Source: Eledone cirrhosa
Taxonomy: Eukaryota
DNA: 64,000 nt
NCBI GenBank assembly: GCA_964016885.1
Contig: OZ024740.1
Span: forward strand, 263,934,001-263,998,000
Direction of reading: 5' to 3'
Shown: positions 6,974 through 64,000 of the stretch, piece after piece
Position numbering within the stretch: the first letter of the stretch is position 1
How the letters are laid out: each line of letters starts with the position of its first letter
Position numbers and translations under genes: made by a program
Notes under the pieces: generated by a model
What the model saw: only the letters and a program-made list of their open reading frames with translations
What the model was told of the DNA's origin: nothing
Databases searched by the model: none

Positions 6974-7135
6974 TATATATATATTGTTATACTTTGGGAG
7001 GGTCATGTTGCCAATAAGAAACACACGCACCAGTTGCTTTCACTTCAATTTAATTTATTATATATTTATAAATTTACAAATTTATAAATTTCTGGTTGGT
7101 TGGTTCCACAACCAGATAGTTGTTTATATATATAT

Positions 7136-7180
7136 AGTCATAGTTCTTTCGTCACACACTCTGTGACCTCTTCAGTGACT
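7136..7180 (-). ncRNA. Type I hammerhead ribozyme in pLTR
   Basis: Reverse complement of the motif at 8188-8232. Confidence 0.8.
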
Positions 7181-8187
7181 GGGGATTTCTTTCTTCGTTT
7201 CTGTGCCTTTCCTTTCTTCTATCCTACGCCATTTTGTTTGTGTGTGGGTTGCGTGCTCAGTTTGCGCATGCACCACATCCGGGTGTCTGTGTGTGTTTGT
7301 GTTCATTTTTCTATTTTTCTATTTATATTTTTTTTTTATTTGTTTATTTATTTATTTATTTATTTATTGTTGGTTGGTTGTTTGTTCTGTGTGTGTGTGT
7401 GTTTTCATTTTGTCTTGTGTGTGTTTTCATTTTGTGTGTGTTTTCAATTGTAAGTTGTTTGTTCTATGTGTGTGTGTGTTTTCATTTTGTCCTTAATTGT
7501 AAGTTGTGATGTTGCTGTTCCACTCATATTTTCTATTTAATTTTGGTTTTAATTCTTTTATGCTTACTGCCTCTGTAATTTGCCTAAACATTGCGTCTTT
7601 CTTGTGTGTGGATTCTATTTTTATTTCTATGCTCTCTAATTTACCCCTGTGTTCTATCTTAGCATGTTGGTAGAGCACAGATGATTCTTTATTATCTTGG
7701 AGGTCTCGCCAGTGTTCATTTATTCGTTCACCTATACTACGAGATGTCTCACCTATGTACACTATATTTTTGTTTCTACATTGTCCTTCAGTACATCTTA
7801 TGCTATATACTACATTTCTAGTTTTACAGTTAATATGGGGGCTTATTTTACAGGTTATAACCTTATTTCTTATCTATATATGAGGGTCTTTGGAACGGGT
7901 ATGTCTTGCTAATAAGTGTTTTTACGGAGGTACCAGGTCTTTCTACTATCTTAATATTGAGATTATGTTTCTTTAGGGCCCTTCTAAATTTGTAGGCTAA
8001 TTCGCCTCTAGGGGTTGTATTGATGAAAATATTGATGAAATATAAATAGAAAAATAGAAAAATGAACACAAACACACACAGACACCCGGATGTGGCGCAT
8101 GCGCAAACTGAGCACGCAACCCACACACAAACAAAATGGCGTAGGATAGAAGAAAGGAAAGGCACAGAAACGAAGAAAGAAATCCCC

Positions 8188-8232
8188 AGTCACTGAAGAG
8201 GTCACAGAGTGTGTGACGAAAGAACTATGACT
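8188..8232 (+). ncRNA. Type I hammerhead ribozyme in pLTR
   Basis: agtca-CTGAAGA-g-gtcaca/gagtg/tgtgac-GAAA-gaac-TA-tgact: 5-bp stem I, 6-bp stem II, minimal stem III. Confidence 0.8.
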
Positions 8233-8700
8233 ATATATATATAAACAACTATCTGGTTGTGGAACCAACCAACCAACCAGACATTTATAAATTTGTAAAT
8301 TTATAAATATATAATAAATTAAATTGAAGTGAAAGCAACTGGTGCGTGTGTTTCTTATTGGCAACATGACCCTCCCAAAGTATAACAATATCGGTTTCAA
8401 CACACGATTTCAGATAAATAATCTTGCTAAACAAATTCAGAAACGATATATATATATATATATATATATTTATTAAAATAACAGATTAAAGTTTAAGCAA
8501 AGAATCGCTGCTTTCCCCCTTAACGGGATCTTCTGAAACTAACAAAGTCAATCTGTAAACGCGGAACTGGATATTTCAAAAAACGTTGCAACCGGAGGAA
8601 GACAGGAAGACGATACTTTGGTTCGTGGTAACGTTCGCTGGCAAAGAACGGGAAAAAACGAATAATACGTCATTAATAGGAGCGGTAAAAAACATTTACG

Positions 8701-12802: not shown

Positions 12803-12995
12803 TTCGTTTCACTATAAGATTTCTATTATTCAAAATATTAATAAATGAAAAATATTCTCATAATCAAAATATATATTTTATTATACATATTTCAAAGGTA
12901 CAATGGTGTTTAAGTACGCTTTCATCAGACAAAATATAAGATTTGGTATGTGATATACCGCTACGGTTTTGATTATTCAATTCCAATATTGGCAG

Positions 12996-13307: not shown

Positions 13308-13366
13308 TTCCATTTACCAGTGGTTTCTTAAAAGCAAAAAATGTTGCTTTCAATCATCAGAATGAA
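13308..13366 (-). ncRNA. Type I hammerhead ribozyme in pLTR
   Basis: ttcatt-CTGATGA-ttgaaagcaa/catttt/ttgcttttaa-GAAA-ccactgg-TA-aatgga; GUA triplet. Confidence 0.85.
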
Positions 13367-15675
13367 AAAAATCGTGGTCTATTTATTGAATTGGATTTTC
13401 AAAAAACAAAAATGCAGTCTATATGAAAGTGAGGCTGGAGAAGGAAGAAGGAAAGGAAAAATAAAATAAAAAGACACATGCAAACATACACACACACACA
13501 CACGATTATAAACACCAACATATATATATACATACACACATACATACACACACACATATACACATATATATGTGTATATATACATACACATACATATACA
13601 CATACATACATACACACATAAATATCAAGATATCCATACATACACATACATATATACAACCACACACATATATATACACATATATATATAGAAATATAAA
13701 TATATATATATATATGCATACACATTCACATACATAGCCATACACACATACATATACATACATACACACAATCATACGTATATACACACGTACATACAAA
13801 CACATACATATACACATATATACATGCATACATATGCATGTACAATATTAGAAAAATATACACACACCTCTACATATTCACAGACGCAAATAAATATAAT
13901 AAAAAATATATATAAAAAATAATAAAGACAAAAGTTGACAGCGATACAGGCAACAAATAAAGATTATTAAAAACTATAGGGGGGGTGGCAAGACTCTTTG
14001 TGTATATACCTAAGGTTTTCATTCGGTTTATGATAAGGTTTATAAGAGGCGGTAAGTAGATCAAGATTAATATCAAAGAAGTTAGCATTGGTAAGGTTCG
14101 TATCTATAGTGATTTTAAGGTTAAGATTAACAAAGGTATTGCTTAAATCTTTACGGAATTTATCAAGGTTATGGCCGTTGGTGGTATGAGAAACTGCCAA
14201 TTCGTCATCACGGTATAAACCGATATTATGGGAAGGAAATTTCTCTTTGAGGGTGTGGAGAAAGAATAATCCTACTAAGTCACACACATCCGCACTGTCA
14301 TATGAACCCATTGCAACATCAAAAGAGTTTTCAGGGTTTGACTTTTTAACCCAAATATTTTCATTAGTAAAGAGTAAAGTTTTTCTAGCATGAAAGATGT
14401 CTTCTTCTAATTTAGAAATATTAATGAAGGGTCTTGCAAACTCTAAGGCATTAGTTAATAAGGAAACAGTAATAGAGGGGTAAAAATCAACAATATCAAA
14501 TTGGGTAAATCTACACTTATTTTTACCTTGTATATTATTAAACCAAGAAAAAACAGAGGAAGTATTTAGCCACTGTGATAGGTCAGTCTTAGTTCTAAAT
14601 TATTAGTTATAAATTATTTTTCTTAAGATTTTTTTACTTGCAAGGCCAACTTAGGATTTAGCCGGGTTAATCAGACTGATTAACTGATACACAAAGAGTC
14701 TTACCACCCCCTATAGTTTTTAATAATCTTATTCCCAACATTAGCAGTAGGATTTCTACCTTATCTTCGTCTATAGACATTTTTAATAAAGCCGCCCCTT
14801 ATTATTAACAAACCCTTAAGAACAGCGGTTTTACTGAAAAAAATTATTATTTACCTACCCCCTAAAACTAACCACAATAACAGGAAAAGGAAAATTATTT
14901 GGTTTACACCCCACTTCTCTCTAACTGTCAAAACTAATGTAGGAAGGAAATTCCTTGAACTCTTAGATAAAAATTTTCCTACTAATCATAGATATTATGA
15001 GATATTTAATAGGAATGCAATTAAGATCAGTTACTCTTGTTGCCCATCTATGAAGTCCAAGATCACCAATTCAAATCATACGAGAACAAATCCAGGATGC
15101 AGTTGCAGGAAGCCGGATGAATGCCCATTGCAGGGCAAATGTAACACCAAATCTGTTGTTTATGAGGCTAAAATAACACCTTTAATCAACACCAGCCAGC
15201 CAGGAGTGAGCGATATGTCGGCATGACCCAGGACAGGTTTTACTCACATGTCGCTTCTTTTAAGCACTCCGATAAACGAACAACAAGGGCCCTCGCAAGT
15301 AAGATATGGGAATTCAAGGATAAAAACATCCCGTACTCTATCGAGTGGTCTATTTTAGACCATTCGAGGGAGTACTAAAGGGGCACAAAGAATTGTTCTT
15401 TGAACTCCTTCTCTGCTCTTTACTTCTACTACGGTTTATTTACCTGCTGAATCCACGTTCTGTACTCTTGTATTCTCTTTCTCCCTTATCTCCCCTTATA
15501 TTAAACCTTTTCCTATGTCATTTCCACCCCCCCCCCTTTTTTTGCCTTACACTTCACATACCAAAATTTATTTTTTATTTTTAGATATTAATTTTTTATA
15601 TAATGGTTTTGTGTGTTTTTATATAATAGCCTCGGAAAAGGCTTGAGATCTGCTGTAGGGTCAGGCTTCTTTCTA

Positions 15676-16235: not shown

Positions 16236-16584
16236 ATGTATATGTGTGTGTATATGTGTGTGTGTATTTATTTTTACGTATGTATGTGTACGTGCATTTG
16301 TGTGTATTGCTTACCACGTGTGTTTTTTCATTTATTTGTTGCCTGTATCGCTGTCAACTTTTGTCTTTATTATTTTTTATATAAATTTTTTCTTATATTT
16401 ATTTGCGTGTGTCAATATGTAGAGGTGTGTGTATATGTTTCTAATATTGTGCATGTATATGTATGCATGTATATATGTGTGTATGTATGTGTTTGTATGT
16501 ACGTGTGTATATACGTATGATTGTGTGCATGTATGTATGTATGTATATGTATGTGTGTATGGCTATGTATGTGAATGTGTATGC

Positions 16585-16616
<32 letters not shown>

Positions 16617-16779
16617 TTCTATATATATGTGTATATATATATATGTGTGGTTGTATATATGTATGTGTATGTATGGATATGTTGATATTTATGTGTGTAT
16701 GTATGTGTATATGTATGTGTATGTATATATATATACACATATATATGTGTATATGTGTGTGTGTATGTATGTATGTGTG

Positions 16780-16833
<54 letters not shown>

Positions 16834-16981
16834 GATGTATATAATCGTGTGTGTGTTTGTGTATGTTTGCATGTGTGTTTTTATTTTATTTTTCCTTTCC
16901 TACTTCCTTCTCCAGCCTCACTTTCATATAGACTGCATTCTTGATTTATAAAATCCAATTCAATAAATAAACCAGGATTTT

Positions 16982-17040
16982 TTCATTCTGATGATTTAAA
17001 GCAACATTCTTTGCTTTTAAGAAACCACTGGTAAATGGAA
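16982..17040 (+). ncRNA. Type I hammerhead ribozyme in pLTR
   Basis: ttcatt-CTGATGA-tttaaagcaa/cattct/ttgcttttaa-GAAA-ccactgg-TA-aatgga. Confidence 0.85.
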
Positions 17041-17153
17041 TACATGCCTTATGTTGTTTATTACATAACTATTAAGCTCTGTTACCTACAAAGAGCACTC
17101 TTTTTTCCTGGACTTTTCCGACGGAATTACTTCATTCATTCATATATACATAT

Positions 17154-28928: not shown

Positions 28929-29068
<140 letters not shown>

Positions 29069-29146
29069 TACAAGCATACATACACATATGTTTATGTATG
29101 TAAATATATATATATGTACACACACACACACATACATATGTATATA

Positions 29147-29743
29147 TCCTGTGTCAGTGATGAACAAAAAGATGACGTGGTTGCCTCAACACTGTACGGC
29201 GTAATTCGGGCTGTTTGTTTTTTTACAAACAAACAAACCGTGCATTATAATAAATGTTCGGTAAACCAATACGTGCATATATATATATGTGTGGATATAT
29301 GTATTTATATACATACTACTGTACGTCTGTATACATATATGTATGTACGTATACATACATACTTACATTTAAGTAAGTACCGTACTAAGAGTGAGAAATG
29401 AAATTTCGTTTCATTCAATTCCATTTATCGTTCAAGGTGTGCCCGGCCGACTGAACTCACTCGATATGCAAATTAGGCTGCTCAGCCGTTAATATGCATG
29501 AGGAAATTATATACTTTCAGACGTTCAACCAACTGGCAGGAAGGTATACGATGCTGACGATAGCTAATAAGCTTGAAACTAGTACATCGTTCCTGTGTCA
29601 GTGTTGAAGAAAAAGGTGACGTGGTTGCCTAAACACTGTACGGCGTAATTCGGGCTGTTGGTTTATTTACAATCAAACAAACCGAGCATTATAATAAATG
29701 TTCGGTAAACCGATACGTGCATATATATGTGTGTGCATGTATG

Positions 29744-29818
<75 letters not shown>

Positions 29819-29924
29819 GCTACTGTACGTCTGTATACATATATGTATGTACGTATACATACATACATACTTACATTTAAGTAAGTGCCGTACTAAGAGT
29901 GAGAAATGAAATTTCGTTTCATTC
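29147..29924 (+). mobile_element. 444-bp non-coding tandem repeat (about 1.6 units) with one hammerhead; retrozyme-like
   Basis: tcctgtgtcagtg...gaaatttcgtttcattc starts at 29147 and 29591; the hammerhead is at the unit junction; flanked by microsatellites. Confidence 0.75.
29548..29590 (+). ncRNA. Minimal type I hammerhead ribozyme
   Basis: acgatg-CTGACGA-t-agct/aata/agct-t-GAAA-ctag-TA-catcgt; palindromic ACTAGT; GUA triplet; stem I extends (cagga/tcctg). Confidence 0.85.
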
Positions 29925-29992
<68 letters not shown>

Positions 29993-38329: not shown

Positions 38330-42230
<3,901 letters not shown>

Positions 42231-52289: not shown

Positions 52290-55200
52290 GGGGCCCTTTC
52301 TGCCCGTGTGTTTGTTTGTTTATGTGTGTCCGTATACAGCGTGGTGATAATGCCACACAAGGGCCAAGTGGGATGGCGGATCCACAGATGGCTATGTAAA
52401 CATACATTCGCCAATCCTCGATAAGAGTGTTTAAATATCGAACATAAACAGTTCGAATAACGGTGAAATGGAGACTAGAACGTCATGTGACAGACTCTCA
52501 CCCAACAGGTGCCCCCTGGCTCAGCAGCAGGAACCTGACTGTCAACCAAATACTGCTGATGTTGGAGGAAGAAGAAGAAGGAAAGGGGCCAGAACCAACT
52601 GGACGAAAGAATTGAATAGAACTGTTATGCAATGCTACCTGAAAAGTAACCCCAAGGAGAGGGGCTACAGGAGACGGATGCATAACATCTGGAACGAGAT
52701 TGGTTTATTTAAATTAGATGAACAAAAATTGGCCGGGCAGGCTCGGGTAATAAGAACTAATGGGTGGATAAGCGAGCTGGAACTGGAGGAACTGAGCAGA
52801 GAGAATGGCTTGGAGATGGCGGGTGTAGTATGCCAGACAAGCGAGCCGGCGGGAAATGAAGGTGAGGAGGTCCTGAGAACGGAGGAACCACCCGAAGCAG
52901 ACAATGATCTGAATACTGAGATAAATAATACCTGGAACAGAGATACGGCCACTGAGGAGATGAATGCTGACGGGCTAGGACAAGATTCGGTTGACATCCT
53001 AAATTTAGTGGTAGATGAGTTGAACAATGATAGTGGGAGACCTATGAACCTAAGATTTGTAGACAGGAAAAAGTTAAAAGAAACAACAGCTAAGGTAAAC
53101 AAAGTCATCCCATACCTTGAGGCGAGGAGTCTTCACCAGTGCAACAATATCCTCAAAGCAACAGCAAATACGGTGAGGAAACTACTTGGTATAAAAGCGA
53201 GAGGAAACAACAGACAAGAAAGAGCAGAGCCGTGGTGGAAGAAGCGACTGAGTGGGCAAATCGGGGAAATGAGAAATGACATAGGAAAGCTTGAGTCACT
53301 ACTGAATGGGACACTAAAAAACATAGGCACTAAAAATAGACTGGAAATAAAATACAAAACTAGGAGTAAAAAGCTAAATATTATCATAGAGGAATTGAAG
53401 CAACGCATTGTAGCAAAGAGTGCCAATATCAGGCGATACGAGAACAGAGTCAGTCAGTATAAACAGAACCGCATGTTCGACAACAACCAGAAGATGCTGC
53501 TTGGACAGCTTGAGGGGAAAGAAAGAGGCAACGACTTGATGCCTGGGGCGGAACAAGCTAAAACATTCTGGAGAGGAATATGGGAGCAGGATGTTAGACA
53601 CAATGCCCAGGCAGGGTGGATTGAGACAGTACAGAGGGAGATCGGTGAGCAGGCACAGCAACAGACTGATTTGAGTATCACAGTTGAAACTCTTAAGGGG
53701 CAAGCCAAAAAACTAACCAACTGGAAATCACCAGGCCCAGATGGTGTGCAGGGGTATTGGATTAAACATTTAACATCCCTCCACCCGAAGCTGACGGCCA
53801 TGTTCAATGACTGCTTGGTGTCGGGTGAGGTGCCAGAGTGGTTGACAAAAGGTACCACAGTTCTGATAATGAAAGACCGAATCAAGGGTAATGATGTTAC
53901 CAACTATAGACCTATCACATGTCTGCCCGTAATGTGGAAACTGTTGACGAGCATTGTGTCTGAGGAAATCTACCATCACCTCCACACAAACAACTTGTTG
54001 CCGGACGAACAGAAAGGATGCCGAAAGAAGTCACGTGGTACAAAGGACCAGTTGCTTATTGATAAGATGGTAATGGGGAATTGCAGGAGGAGACACACTG
54101 ATCTTGCCATGGGATGGATAGACTACAGAAAGGCATTTGACATGGTGCCTCATTCCTGGATCACCAAAAGCCTGGAGATCTTCAGTGTGGCAGATAACAT
54201 CAGACAGTTGCTGGGCAGGAGTATGGGGTCCTGGGAGACAGAGTTGACATCAACTGGAGTATCCTTGGGAAGCGTGAAGATCAAGAGAGGTATCTTCCAG
54301 GGAGATAGCCTGTCCCCTCTGTTGTTTGTCCTTGCCCTGATGCCCTTGACCATTATGCTGCGAAAAGTGAGAGCAGGATACAAGTTGGGAAGGGGAGAGC
54401 TTACCATCAATCACCTCCTCTTCATGGACGATCTTAAGCTCTTCGGGAAAAGTGAGAAGGAGTTGGATGTGCTTGTTGACACTGTCCGTATTTTCAGCAG
54501 TGATATATGTATGCAGTTTGGTATTGGTAAATGTGGAGTCATTGTGATGAGGAGGGGTAGGTTGAGCAGAAGTAACGGGATCCAGATACCAACAGGTGAG
54601 ATGATAAAGGAAATTGACTCTGAGGAAGGATACAAGTATTTGGGCGTTCTGGAGGCTGATGGCATAAAGAACAAAAAAATGAAGGAATTGTTAAGAACTG
54701 AATACATTCGGAGAGTAAGGAGCGTATTGAAGTCACATCTGAACAGCAGAAATGCCATAAGCGCAGTAAATTCCCGAGCTGTGTCTATTATTAGGTACAG
54801 TGCGGGAATTCTGAGATGGAATGTTGCTGAACAAAAAGAAATGGATAGGAAGACTAGGAAGCTATTGACTATCTACAACATGTTCCACAAGAGGAGTGAT
54901 GTCGATAGACTCTACCTAAGGAGATCTGAGGGTGGAAGAGGTCTTATCAGCATAGAGGACTGTGTTCAGATGGAGAAAAACAACCTATACAAATACGTGA
55001 CCTATAGTAAGGAGCCAATGCTCAGAGCTGTACTGAAGGAGGGGACAGTAGGCCAGGGGATATCCAAGGAGGAAATAACATCAAGGAGGAAGAGCAGCCT
55101 TAAGGGAAAATCCCTTCATAGTACCTTCTTTGAGAAAACTGAATTTAGAGATCCACAGACATGGAACTGGTTGAGAAGAGGAGACCTCAAAAAGGCTACA

Positions 55201-55934
55201 GAAGTAATGCTAATGGCTGCGCGGGAGCAGGCCCTCAAAACGAAGTGGTTGAAGCACCATATCTACAAGGAGGAGGCTAGCCCACTGTGCAGGATCTGTG
55301 GAGAGAGAGAGGAGACTGTGGCTCACATTGTGTCCGAGTGTAAACACCTAGCCCAGACCCACTATAAGGGCTGGAGACACGATGTGATGGGCAGGGTGAT
55401 CCACTGGCACCTGTGCAAAGTAAACAATCTACCACATTCTGAGAAATGGTATGAGCATAGGCCAGAGGCGGTGATGGAGAACAGTCAGGTGAAGGTGCTG
55501 TGGGATTTTAGGATACAGACGGACAAAAAACTGGAACACAATAGACCTGACCTGGTGGTTGTGGACAAAGAAAAAAGATCGTGCCTGATTGTGGATGTGG
55601 CCTGCCCGTTCGACACGAGAGTGCAGGAGAAGGAGAGGGAGAAAATTAACCGATACCAGGACCTAAAGTGGGAGGTGAAAAGGATTTGGAACTGCCATGA
55701 AGTCAAAGTGATCCCGATTGTCATAGGCGCACTGGGGACTATCTCCAAAGGTTTCCAGGGATGGTTAAAGAAAATCGGCCCCTTCACGCTTTTTGGAACG
55801 CTTCAAAAGGCATGCTTGCTTGGAACGGCAAGAACCCTCCGATACGTCCTGAATATCTGAGGCTGCAGGTAGTGGCTTGATATTCAATCCAACGGACTTT
55901 CCAGTTAACCAACATCAATGACTGAGATTCAAGG
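52290..55934 (+). mobile_element. Full-length R4/Dong-like RLE non-LTR retrotransposon (family A)
   Basis: About 180-bp 5' UTR, single intact ORF, 74-bp 3' UTR, (TAA)n on both sides as known for Dong elements. Confidence 0.93.
52468..55860 (+). CDS. Reverse transcriptase / CCHC zinc knuckle / restriction-like endonuclease polyprotein (1130 aa)
   Basis: KSPGPDG, NYRPITCL, IDYRKAFDMVPH, GIFQGDSLSP, FMDD, YKYLG, GGRGL; CRIC..ETVAHIVSEC; RHD, RPDL..DV..EKINRY. Confidence 0.97.
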   Translation: METRTSCDRLSPNRCPLAQQQEPDCQPNTADVGGRRRRKGARTNWTKELNRTVMQCYLKSNPKERGYRRRMHNIWNEIGLFKLDEQKLAGQARVIRTNGWISELELEELSRENGLEMAGVVCQTSEPAGNEGEEVLRTEEPPEADNDLNTEINNTWNRDTATEEMNADGLGQDSVDILNLVVDELNNDSGRPMNLRFVDRKKLKETTAKVNKVIPYLEARSLHQCNNILKATANTVRKLLGIKARGNNRQERAEPWWKKRLSGQIGEMRNDIGKLESLLNGTLKNIGTKNRLEIKYKTRSKKLNIIIEELKQRIVAKSANIRRYENRVSQYKQNRMFDNNQKMLLGQLEGKERGNDLMPGAEQAKTFWRGIWEQDVRHNAQAGWIETVQREIGEQAQQQTDLSITVETLKGQAKKLTNWKSPGPDGVQGYWIKHLTSLHPKLTAMFNDCLVSGEVPEWLTKGTTVLIMKDRIKGNDVTNYRPITCLPVMWKLLTSIVSEEIYHHLHTNNLLPDEQKGCRKKSRGTKDQLLIDKMVMGNCRRRHTDLAMGWIDYRKAFDMVPHSWITKSLEIFSVADNIRQLLGRSMGSWETELTSTGVSLGSVKIKRGIFQGDSLSPLLFVLALMPLTIMLRKVRAGYKLGRGELTINHLLFMDDLKLFGKSEKELDVLVDTVRIFSSDICMQFGIGKCGVIVMRRGRLSRSNGIQIPTGEMIKEIDSEEGYKYLGVLEADGIKNKKMKELLRTEYIRRVRSVLKSHLNSRNAISAVNSRAVSIIRYSAGILRWNVAEQKEMDRKTRKLLTIYNMFHKRSDVDRLYLRRSEGGRGLISIEDCVQMEKNNLYKYVTYSKEPMLRAVLKEGTVGQGISKEEITSRRKSSLKGKSLHSTFFEKTEFRDPQTWNWLRRGDLKKATEVMLMAAREQALKTKWLKHHIYKEEASPLCRICGEREETVAHIVSECKHLAQTHYKGWRHDVMGRVIHWHLCKVNNLPHSEKWYEHRPEAVMENSQVKVLWDFRIQTDKKLEHNRPDLVVVDKEKRSCLIVDVACPFDTRVQEKEREKINRYQDLKWEVKRIWNCHEVKVIPIVIGALGTISKGFQGWLKKIGPFTLFGTLQKACLLGTARTLRYVLNI

Positions 55935-63032: not shown

Positions 63033-63076
<44 letters not shown>

Positions 63077-63088
63077 GTTATTGTTATT

Positions 63089-64000
63089 CCTTGAATCTCA
63101 GTCATTGATGTTGGTTAACTGGAAAGTCCGTTGGATTGAATATCAAGCCACTACATGCAGCCTCAGATATTCAGGACGTATCGGAGGGTTCTTGCCGTTC
63201 CAAGCAAGCATGCCTTTTGAAGCGTTCCAAAAAGCGTGAAGGGGCCGATTTTCTTTAACCATCCCTGGAAACCTTTGGAGATAGTCCCCAGTGCGCCTAT
63301 GACAATCGGGATCACTTTGACTTCATGGCAGTTCCAAATCCTTTTCACCTCCCACTTTAGGTCCTGGTATCGGTTAATTTTCTCCCTCTCCTTCTCCTGC
63401 ACTCTCGTGTCGAACGGGCAGGCCACATCCACAGTCAGGCACGATCTTTTTTCTTTGTCCACAACCACCAGGTCAGGTCTATTGTGTTCCAGTTTTTTGT
63501 CCGTCTGTATCCTAAAATCCCACAGCACCTTCACCTGACTGTTCTCCATCACCGCCTCTGGCCTATGCTCATACCATTTCTCAGAATGTGGTAGATTGTT
63601 TACTTTGCACAGGTGCCAGTGGATCACCCTGCCCATCACATCGTGTCTCCAGCCCTTATAGTGGGTCTGGGCTAGGTGTTTACACTCGGACACAATGTGA
63701 GCCACAGTCTCCTCTCTCTCTCCACAGATCCTGCACAGTGGGCTAGCCTCCTCCTTGTAGATATGGTGCTTCAACCACTTCGTTTTGAGGGCCTGCTCCT
63801 GCGCAGCCATTAGCATTACTTCTGTAGCCTTTTTGAGGTCTCCTCTTCTCAACCAGTTCCATGTCTGTGGATCTCTAAATTCAGTTTTCTCAAAGAAGGT
63901 ACTATGAAGGGATTTTCCCTTAAGGCTGCTCTTCCTCCTTGATGTTATTTCCTCCTTGGATATCCCCTGGCCTACTGTCCCCTCCTTCAGTACAGCTCTG
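63089..64000 (-). mobile_element. Family A RLE copy, almost identical to the full-length element; runs off the window
   Basis: ORF 63163-63852 differs at two residues from the C-terminus of 52468-55860; (TAA)n tail at 63033-63088. Confidence 0.96.

Follow-up and report, generated by a model that had tools for sequence, protein, structure and literature searches.

A non-LTR retrozyme family in Eledone cirrhosa with Penelope-type insertion junctions

A short non-coding tandem repeat with a hammerhead motif lies in the 64,000-nt stretch of the Eledone cirrhosa genome analysed here (hereafter the window; contig OZ024740.1, positions 263,934,001 to 263,998,000), which raises the question of what kind of element it is and how it was inserted. 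The original prediction had read it as a retrozyme, that is, the cDNA of a self-cleaved RNA, probably mobilised by a Penelope reverse transcriptase, on the ground that its 5' boundary sits at a ribozyme cleavage site.

The window copy and its hammerhead

The window copy comprises 1.6 units flanked by TA-rich microsatellites (Table 1). The predicted 444-nt period holds as the spacing from 29147 to 29591, but the tandem is limited to these 1.6 units and to one hammerhead. The two units are identical at 257 of 275 aligned nucleotides (93.5%). As proposed, the copy begins 6 nt past the equivalent of the cut, at unit position 7; its 3' end lies at about 29929, compared with the 29924 given earlier, and a similarly short 3' end on (TC)n was found at two other loci (L041 and L043). 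No target-site duplication was discernible around the copy (flanks 28932..29146 and 29928..29986). The predicted lack of an ORF was borne out, the longest frame being microsatellite read-through of at most 65 aa. With a single hammerhead, release of a monomer from this copy on its own is impossible, and the copy falls outside the 'active' definition of a recent study of Xenopus retrozymes (10.64898/2026.07.22.740005). It is a decayed member of a family of non-coding hammerhead repeats.

Table 1. Features of the window copy and its flanks (positions in the window).
Feature	Position	Strand	Remarks
5' flank: (AT)n, (AG)n, low-complexity DNA	28932..29146	.	
Unit 1, 5'-truncated	29147..29584	+	Unit positions 7-442, numbered from the predicted cut
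Small hairpin with site A (unit position ~229)	29361..29378	+	Site A at 29371; second copy 29879
Hairpin, then site B (unit position 286)	29395..29428	+	Site B at 29428; second hairpin copy 29903-29924
Minimal type I hammerhead, predicted	29548..29590	+	Stem I 29548-53 with 29585-90; core 29554-60; stem II 29561-74; GAAA 29575-78
Palindromic ACTAGT (29578-83) and cleavage nucleotide	29578..29584	+	Predicted intermolecular stem III; predicted cut 29584/29585
Unit 2, partial	29585..29929	+	Unit positions 1-279; ends on (TC)n, 7 nt before site B
(TA)n expansion	29740..29815	.	Within the long self-complementary microsatellite hairpin of unit 2
(TC)n to (TA)n run at the 3' junction, putative target	29928..29986	.	

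The hammerhead itself stands as it had been called, a clean minimal motif of type I with a palindromic ACTAGT. Its parts are stem I (ACGATG/CATCGT), the core CTGACGA, stem II (AGCT/AGCT on a U.U base) and GAAA. A strict scan returned 2 hammerhead motifs in the window, whereas 200 dinucleotide shuffles of it gave none. Searches of Rfam at gathering and E-value thresholds detected no hammerhead family, and the only matches were microsatellite-driven ones to miRNAs. The variable pair of stem I was A:T in 143 of 256 motifs, G:T in 63, T:G in 44 and another combination in 6, a count that is uninformative about the remaining motif positions, as these were fixed by the search pattern. Subfamily changes in the hammerhead sit at tolerated places, namely core position 7, loop II and one stem I pair. 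In a sister family at 60% identity (famY), stems I and II have been replaced wholesale by other pairing sequences, and the ACTAGT palindrome and the circle fold are kept; a third family carries the palindrome ACGCGT instead. Judging from this variation, the hammerhead appears to be under selection, its variants preserving the fold.

Loop III has only 2 nt and cannot close within a monomer. Together with the palindrome kept in two other families, this anatomy supports a model in which cleavage would occur as a dimer through the palindromic stem III. The double hammerhead has a predicted energy of -20.2 kcal/mol, compared with twice -7.1 for the single form, and parts of PMC4209133 treat dimer cleavage of minimal palindromic hammerheads as established.

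A large dispersed family with a fixed unit

The 43-nt hammerhead motif has 29,147 matches in the genome at no more than 3 mismatches (control 0), a lower bound on the size of the family, and a 39-nt core has 1,916 exact matches (control 0). By simple arithmetic, the family occupies roughly at least 13 Mb of the 3.0-Gb genome. Its copies are dispersed over at least 12 contigs, with a median segment length of 371 nt. Complete monomers (n = 82, sister family included) measure 420-530 nt and form several subfamilies that are 6-18% apart, in addition to famY at about 40%. The unit is a non-coding head-to-tail repeat with no LTR or primer-binding site. Since 147 of 294 segments cross site B, one of the two 3' ends described below, and continue into the same sequence, the unit is a fixed monomer, and this junction past site B is constant and also conserved in famY. 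The circular consensus has a predicted fold of -147 compared with -100 +/- 6 for 60 shuffles (z -8), a difference inflated by the self-complementary microsatellites. Two-sided changes were seen at 21 of 117 predicted consensus pairs, and the conserved predicted fold pairs both ends of the monomer.

The proposed retrozyme identity is supported by the non-coding fixed unit, the tens of thousands of dispersed copies, the structure-preserving variation and the lack of a consistent coding link. As far as sequence can tell, the element is a non-LTR retrozyme, with all the testable features of one. In the parts of Cervera and de la Pena (2020) that describe metazoan non-LTR retrozymes (PMC7229834), these share with our family a non-coding tandem unit, a type I hammerhead with a weak palindromic stem III, low GC content, a highly self-paired predicted circle and thousands of copies, and axolotl HHR_Amex2 has the same U.U at the base of stem II. 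Their units are shorter (about 170-400 nt, compared with 420-510 nt here), and inverted arms or fixed internal 3' ends, both present in our family, do not appear in those passages; a further difference is that our case showed no target-site duplication. The class is thus known, and the family described here is a new, very large member of it with unusually clear mobilisation junctions.

The sister family famY (L163:1950-2330; L184-L213; L334-L383) has a unit of 464-484 nt and 4,933 exact hammerheads, and its copies are 97-99% identical and form arrays of at least 20 units. A third retrozyme-like family (L133, L134 and L173, overlapping or separate loci) has a 310-nt unit unrelated in sequence, a hammerhead with a U.U-based stem II, and head-to-head arms with two ends. 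Pieces of the unit were also present in contigs from three sequencing runs of unrecorded kind, which have no bearing on expression: 8652 in run X1, and 5-6 diverged ones in runs X4 and X5, which come from two other organisms and consist of few contigs at low depth. One contig among the latter pieces has an opposite-strand joint.

Variable 5' ends and 3' ends fixed at two sites

The start of the window copy near the cut did not prove to be a family trait. Among 101 copies picked by unit positions 8-24 alone, and hence without regard to the hammerhead, 93 have the full motif upstream, 2 span the cut and 1 has a diverged hammerhead. The other 5 all belong to inverted arms and begin at positions 440-4, compared with about 2 expected by arithmetic from a mean arm of about 450 nt. 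In 87 loci chosen by an exact hammerhead, a set biased in favour of read-through, 4 of the 148 5' ends fall no more than 12 nt from the cut, compared with 8 expected. The small excess in the first set may mean that some templates were cut linear RNA. The 5' ends are scattered, and the informative boundary is the 3' end.

For the end statistics we omitted the first 30 loci, which had been chosen by similarity, and removed long arrays and duplicates (23 loci). Of the 291 segments in the 168 loci, 121 have their end at site A (about unit position 229) and 119 have it at site B (286), with the remaining 51 ending at other points, so that 240 stop at one of two points 57 nt apart, the 'tail'. In the first 87 loci, a (TA)n run abuts 53 of the 63 ends at A and 52 of the 60 at B, compared with 4 of 23 other ends. 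Both sites lie in or after a small hairpin and themselves end in UUUA or UUAU, in similar contexts (CAUUUA or UUUAU after the hairpin) that could pair with a TA primer, and the putative reverse-transcription starts at A and B show microhomology of 2-4 nt of TA. famY keeps both sites, at 228-233 and 302.

Head-to-head pairs of arms were frequent (90 in the 168 loci). Leaving aside 33 in which an end matches neither site or falls outside the locus, 57 have both ends fixed, and 53 of these combine A with B (3 A/A, 1 B/B; p 3e-12). The same rule is followed by 11 of 12 pairs in famY. It also holds in a young coding Penelope-like family, whose two ends lie about 97 nt apart, for 12 of 13 resolved pairs among 30 loci, the far end being unconfirmed in two.

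Fixed ends, A/B arms and TA targets are the Penelope 'tail' signature. Passages of PMC8557442 describe Penelope-like elements as 5'-truncated, with an inverted copy, a tail at one end and TA targets. The anole enzyme cuts both strands and extends them, and its two internal start sites correspond to the tail seen in the genome (PMC11167929). We therefore consider it likely that this non-LTR retrozyme, with its variable 5' ends and its 3' ends fixed at two sites beside TA runs, owes its insertion to a Penelope-like reverse transcriptase-endonuclease acting in trans and priming on both strands of the target. The mobiliser named in the original prediction is thus probably right, on the strength of the 3' junctions and A/B arms, but the reason given, the 5' boundary, was wrong. 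The asymmetric tail was already known qualitatively for coding elements; what is useful here is the junction evidence for mobilisation of a retrozyme. More generally, the A/B rule (53/57, 11/12 and 12/13) constrains how Penelope-like elements insert.

According to the relevant part of PMC8557442, the tail arises after priming, when the endonuclease resolves an intermediate, and the A/B asymmetry would then not reflect two start sites. The anole enzyme indeed shows no strand difference in start site in vitro (PMC11167929). We regard this as unlikely for our family, however, since genomic ends map onto the two start sites measured in the same work, and sites A and B are alike in context and in their ability to pair with a TA primer.

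A satellite derived from a terminal repeat and spread at the DNA level, by local amplification or a Helitron-type rolling circle, could also be envisaged. Local amplification is visible in some arrays, and the microsatellite cores and 3' hairpins are reminiscent of non-autonomous Helentrons. A satellite model has been proposed in 10.64898/2026.07.22.740005. It leaves unexplained the dispersal over at least 12 contigs with a median segment of 371 nt, the head-to-head A/B arms, copies that are truncated at random on the 5' side yet end at fixed 3' points on the ribozyme strand, and selection for RNA structure. End mapping largely refutes this explanation, which we find barely credible.

Endonuclease-positive Penelope-like elements, as described in parts of PMC8557442, PMC11167929 and PMC4209133, share with our family 5' truncation, partial tandems, an inverted 5' copy, an optional tail at one end, TA-microsatellite targets, a minimal palindromic hammerhead and two internal start sites. 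Their tail is 30-40 nt long, compared with 57 here, about 70 in famY and about 97 in the coding family mentioned above, and our unit differs in having no ORF and start sites 229 and 286 nt past the cut. Non-autonomous Chlamys elements such as MRC1 are likewise non-coding passengers inserted head-to-tail, but in the passages of PMC8557442 that deal with them they resemble an autonomous partner at the 3' end, and no such partner was found here.

Coding partner and template

A consistent coding linkage was not found, with a direct junction at only 1 of 108 free 5' ends. Penelope-like coding sequence lies within 1.2 kb of 7 of these ends; in five cases it has the opposite orientation, in one it is 700 nt off behind a TA run, and at L168 it is joined directly. 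The other 107 ends have no in-line coding junction and no common flank save unit sequence or the tails of other elements. Three Penelope-like families inspected (30 loci each) share no DNA with the unit, and neither flank comparison and tblastn for a coding partner nor the other hammerhead families in the flanks of the loci revealed any that does. The reverse transcriptase and GIY-YIG endonuclease ORF that would mark an autonomous element is absent between the repeats. Pfam gave no name to any of the four coding fragments, which we take to be Penelope-like from characteristic motifs and from the similarity among them.

In L168 (L168:1228-2600), a Penelope-like endonuclease region is joined directly to the retrozyme, and the A/B rule is obeyed across both elements. 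The coding piece belongs to the young coding family for which the rule was scored above; the inverted arm ends at the B site of that family, and the sense arm runs on into retrozyme sequence that stops at site A. The arrangement is consistent with a template switch during a single insertion, or with a second insertion that came later and involved a deletion. A separate, very young autonomous Penelope-like family (L214-L243, e.g. L226) has about 90 identical endonuclease-region matches, open frames of 785 aa and a hammerhead-like motif with an atypical stem III.

Every insertion mark is Penelope-like, and the L168 copy touches an endonuclease-coding piece, as might be expected if the family came from an ordinary coding Penelope-like element, its copies being truncated terminal repeats and the ORF having escaped sampling. 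Against this, the element at L168 has a 3' region unrelated to the retrozyme unit in its other 29 loci, 107 of 108 free 5' ends carry no in-line coding junction, and the constant sequence after site B, conserved in famY, does not look like random truncation. We therefore hold terminal repeats to be a very unlikely origin.

Mobilisation of a separate RNA in trans raises the question of its template. Between opposite arms, 347 of 376 subfamily-diagnostic sites agree (92%, compared with 68% between loci); between successive units, 523 of 561 do (93%). Rare variants are common to arms and to successive units at 14% and 10%, respectively, against about 1%; this allele comparison takes in similarity-picked loci, and one locus supplies 19 of the 43 shared rare variants. 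This pattern suggests a single template for each insertion, its alleles recurring in both arms. One famY insertion carries 6 + 12 = 18 identical units of its own haplotype over both arms, with an A end on one and a B end on the other. Arm lengths showed no pile-up at one full turn, which a circular template might give (2x2 table, p 1.0).

Some arrays have been amplified locally. L276 contains a local duplication, L284 a higher-order pattern of period 4, and L366 a period-3 variant in one arm that is absent from the other; long identical arrays are therefore no proof of rolling-circle copying. For L276, a reading of its alternating array as copied from a dimer circle was rejected, as its unit 2 is a mosaic that unequal exchange accounts for. 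Higher-order repeats of periods 2, 3, 4 and 6 occur inside young retrozyme arrays (L284, L276, L366 and L279) and represent the birth of satellites from a retroelement in progress.

These observations bear on whether circles take part at all. The same element and enzyme could have used an uncut linear multimer transcribed from a genomic array, with a slow or protein-gated hammerhead and no role for circles in insertion. This would account equally well for the shared alleles and for read-through of the cut, source arrays of 4-17 or more units exist, and the anole enzyme uses uncut RNA as its dominant substrate in vitro (PMC11167929). Six B arms stop at site A, after 53-63 nt, as in twin priming on one RNA strand, a weak signal given that about 4 were expected. 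The 18 identical units, on the other hand, would require a 20-unit uncut transcript of a homogeneous source, both monomer ends are paired in the conserved fold, and related animal retrozymes accumulate as circles according to sections of PMC7229834. We regard a linear template as possible, if somewhat doubtful, and lean slightly towards a circular RNA as the predicted template.

With a circular template, transcription of arrays would be followed by pairing of two hammerheads through the ACUAGU palindrome and by cleavage. The monomer of 420-510 nt would fold into a closed, branched form and probably be ligated to a circle. A putative Penelope-like protein would cut (TA)n and start cDNA at site A or B, where the 3' ends are found. 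Often, as the arm pattern suggests, priming would occur at A for one target strand and at B for the other, with a single template allele copied from both, and the resulting cDNAs would be joined head to head. Synthesis would pass the cut site and stop at random, leaving the partial tandems observed, and some arrays may later expand in place through unequal exchange, as seen at L276.

More tentatively, it is quite possible that a dimer of the enzyme holds one retrozyme circle at the two hairpin-flanked start sites, primes one strand with each subunit and copies round the circle in both arms. If true, this would be genomic proof that Penelope-like machinery mobilises animal retrozyme circles without shared sequence; the 'tail on one end only' would reflect a fixed division of labour between the two subunits, and L168 would be a caught template switch that names the partner family.

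Penelope-like elements have been proposed as mobilisers of retrozymes in parts of PMC7229834 and PMC7761336. These, as well as the Xenopus work, state the mobilising enzyme and the circle as template to be open questions. In Xenopus (Li, Clavereau, Pollet, bioRxiv 10.64898/2026.07.22.740005), retrozymes likewise co-occur with Penelope-like elements, mix monomers and multimers and amplify locally. Against the reading given here, only 1 of 9 retrozyme dimers from Xenopus cleaved in vitro. The evidence there is co-distribution and terminal-repeat homology, with the mechanism left open, whereas ours consists of Penelope-type junctions with no homologous coding element found. A word search of the main text of that study gave no sign that tails, inverted arms or start sites are discussed, and our literature searches, whose scope largely excluded subscription papers, found no end-mapping of retrozyme insertions. 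The E. cirrhosa genome holds three retrozyme families together with young intact Penelope-like families, some with near-identical recent copies. As these coexist and the predicted start sites are exact, the questions of enzyme and template are testable with the in vitro assay of PMC11167929.

The window contains several other elements. At 13308-14599 (-) and 16331-17140 (+) lies a Penelope-like insertion with head-to-head arms that contains a reverse-transcriptase fragment; each arm has a hammerhead, and the tail occurs on one arm only. A second head-to-head insertion, at 7093-8390, has arms that are 98% complementary and carries hammerheads at 7180 (-) and 8188 (+) together with an endonuclease fragment. 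Two solitary hammerheads, at 12872-12938 (-) and 42027-42081 (+), belong to families also present in flanking DNA at other loci. Finally, an open 1141-aa non-LTR reverse-transcriptase frame (RVT_1, zf-RVT) at 52435-55860 (+) has a 99% identical inverted 3' copy at 63062-64000, and this element looks recently active.
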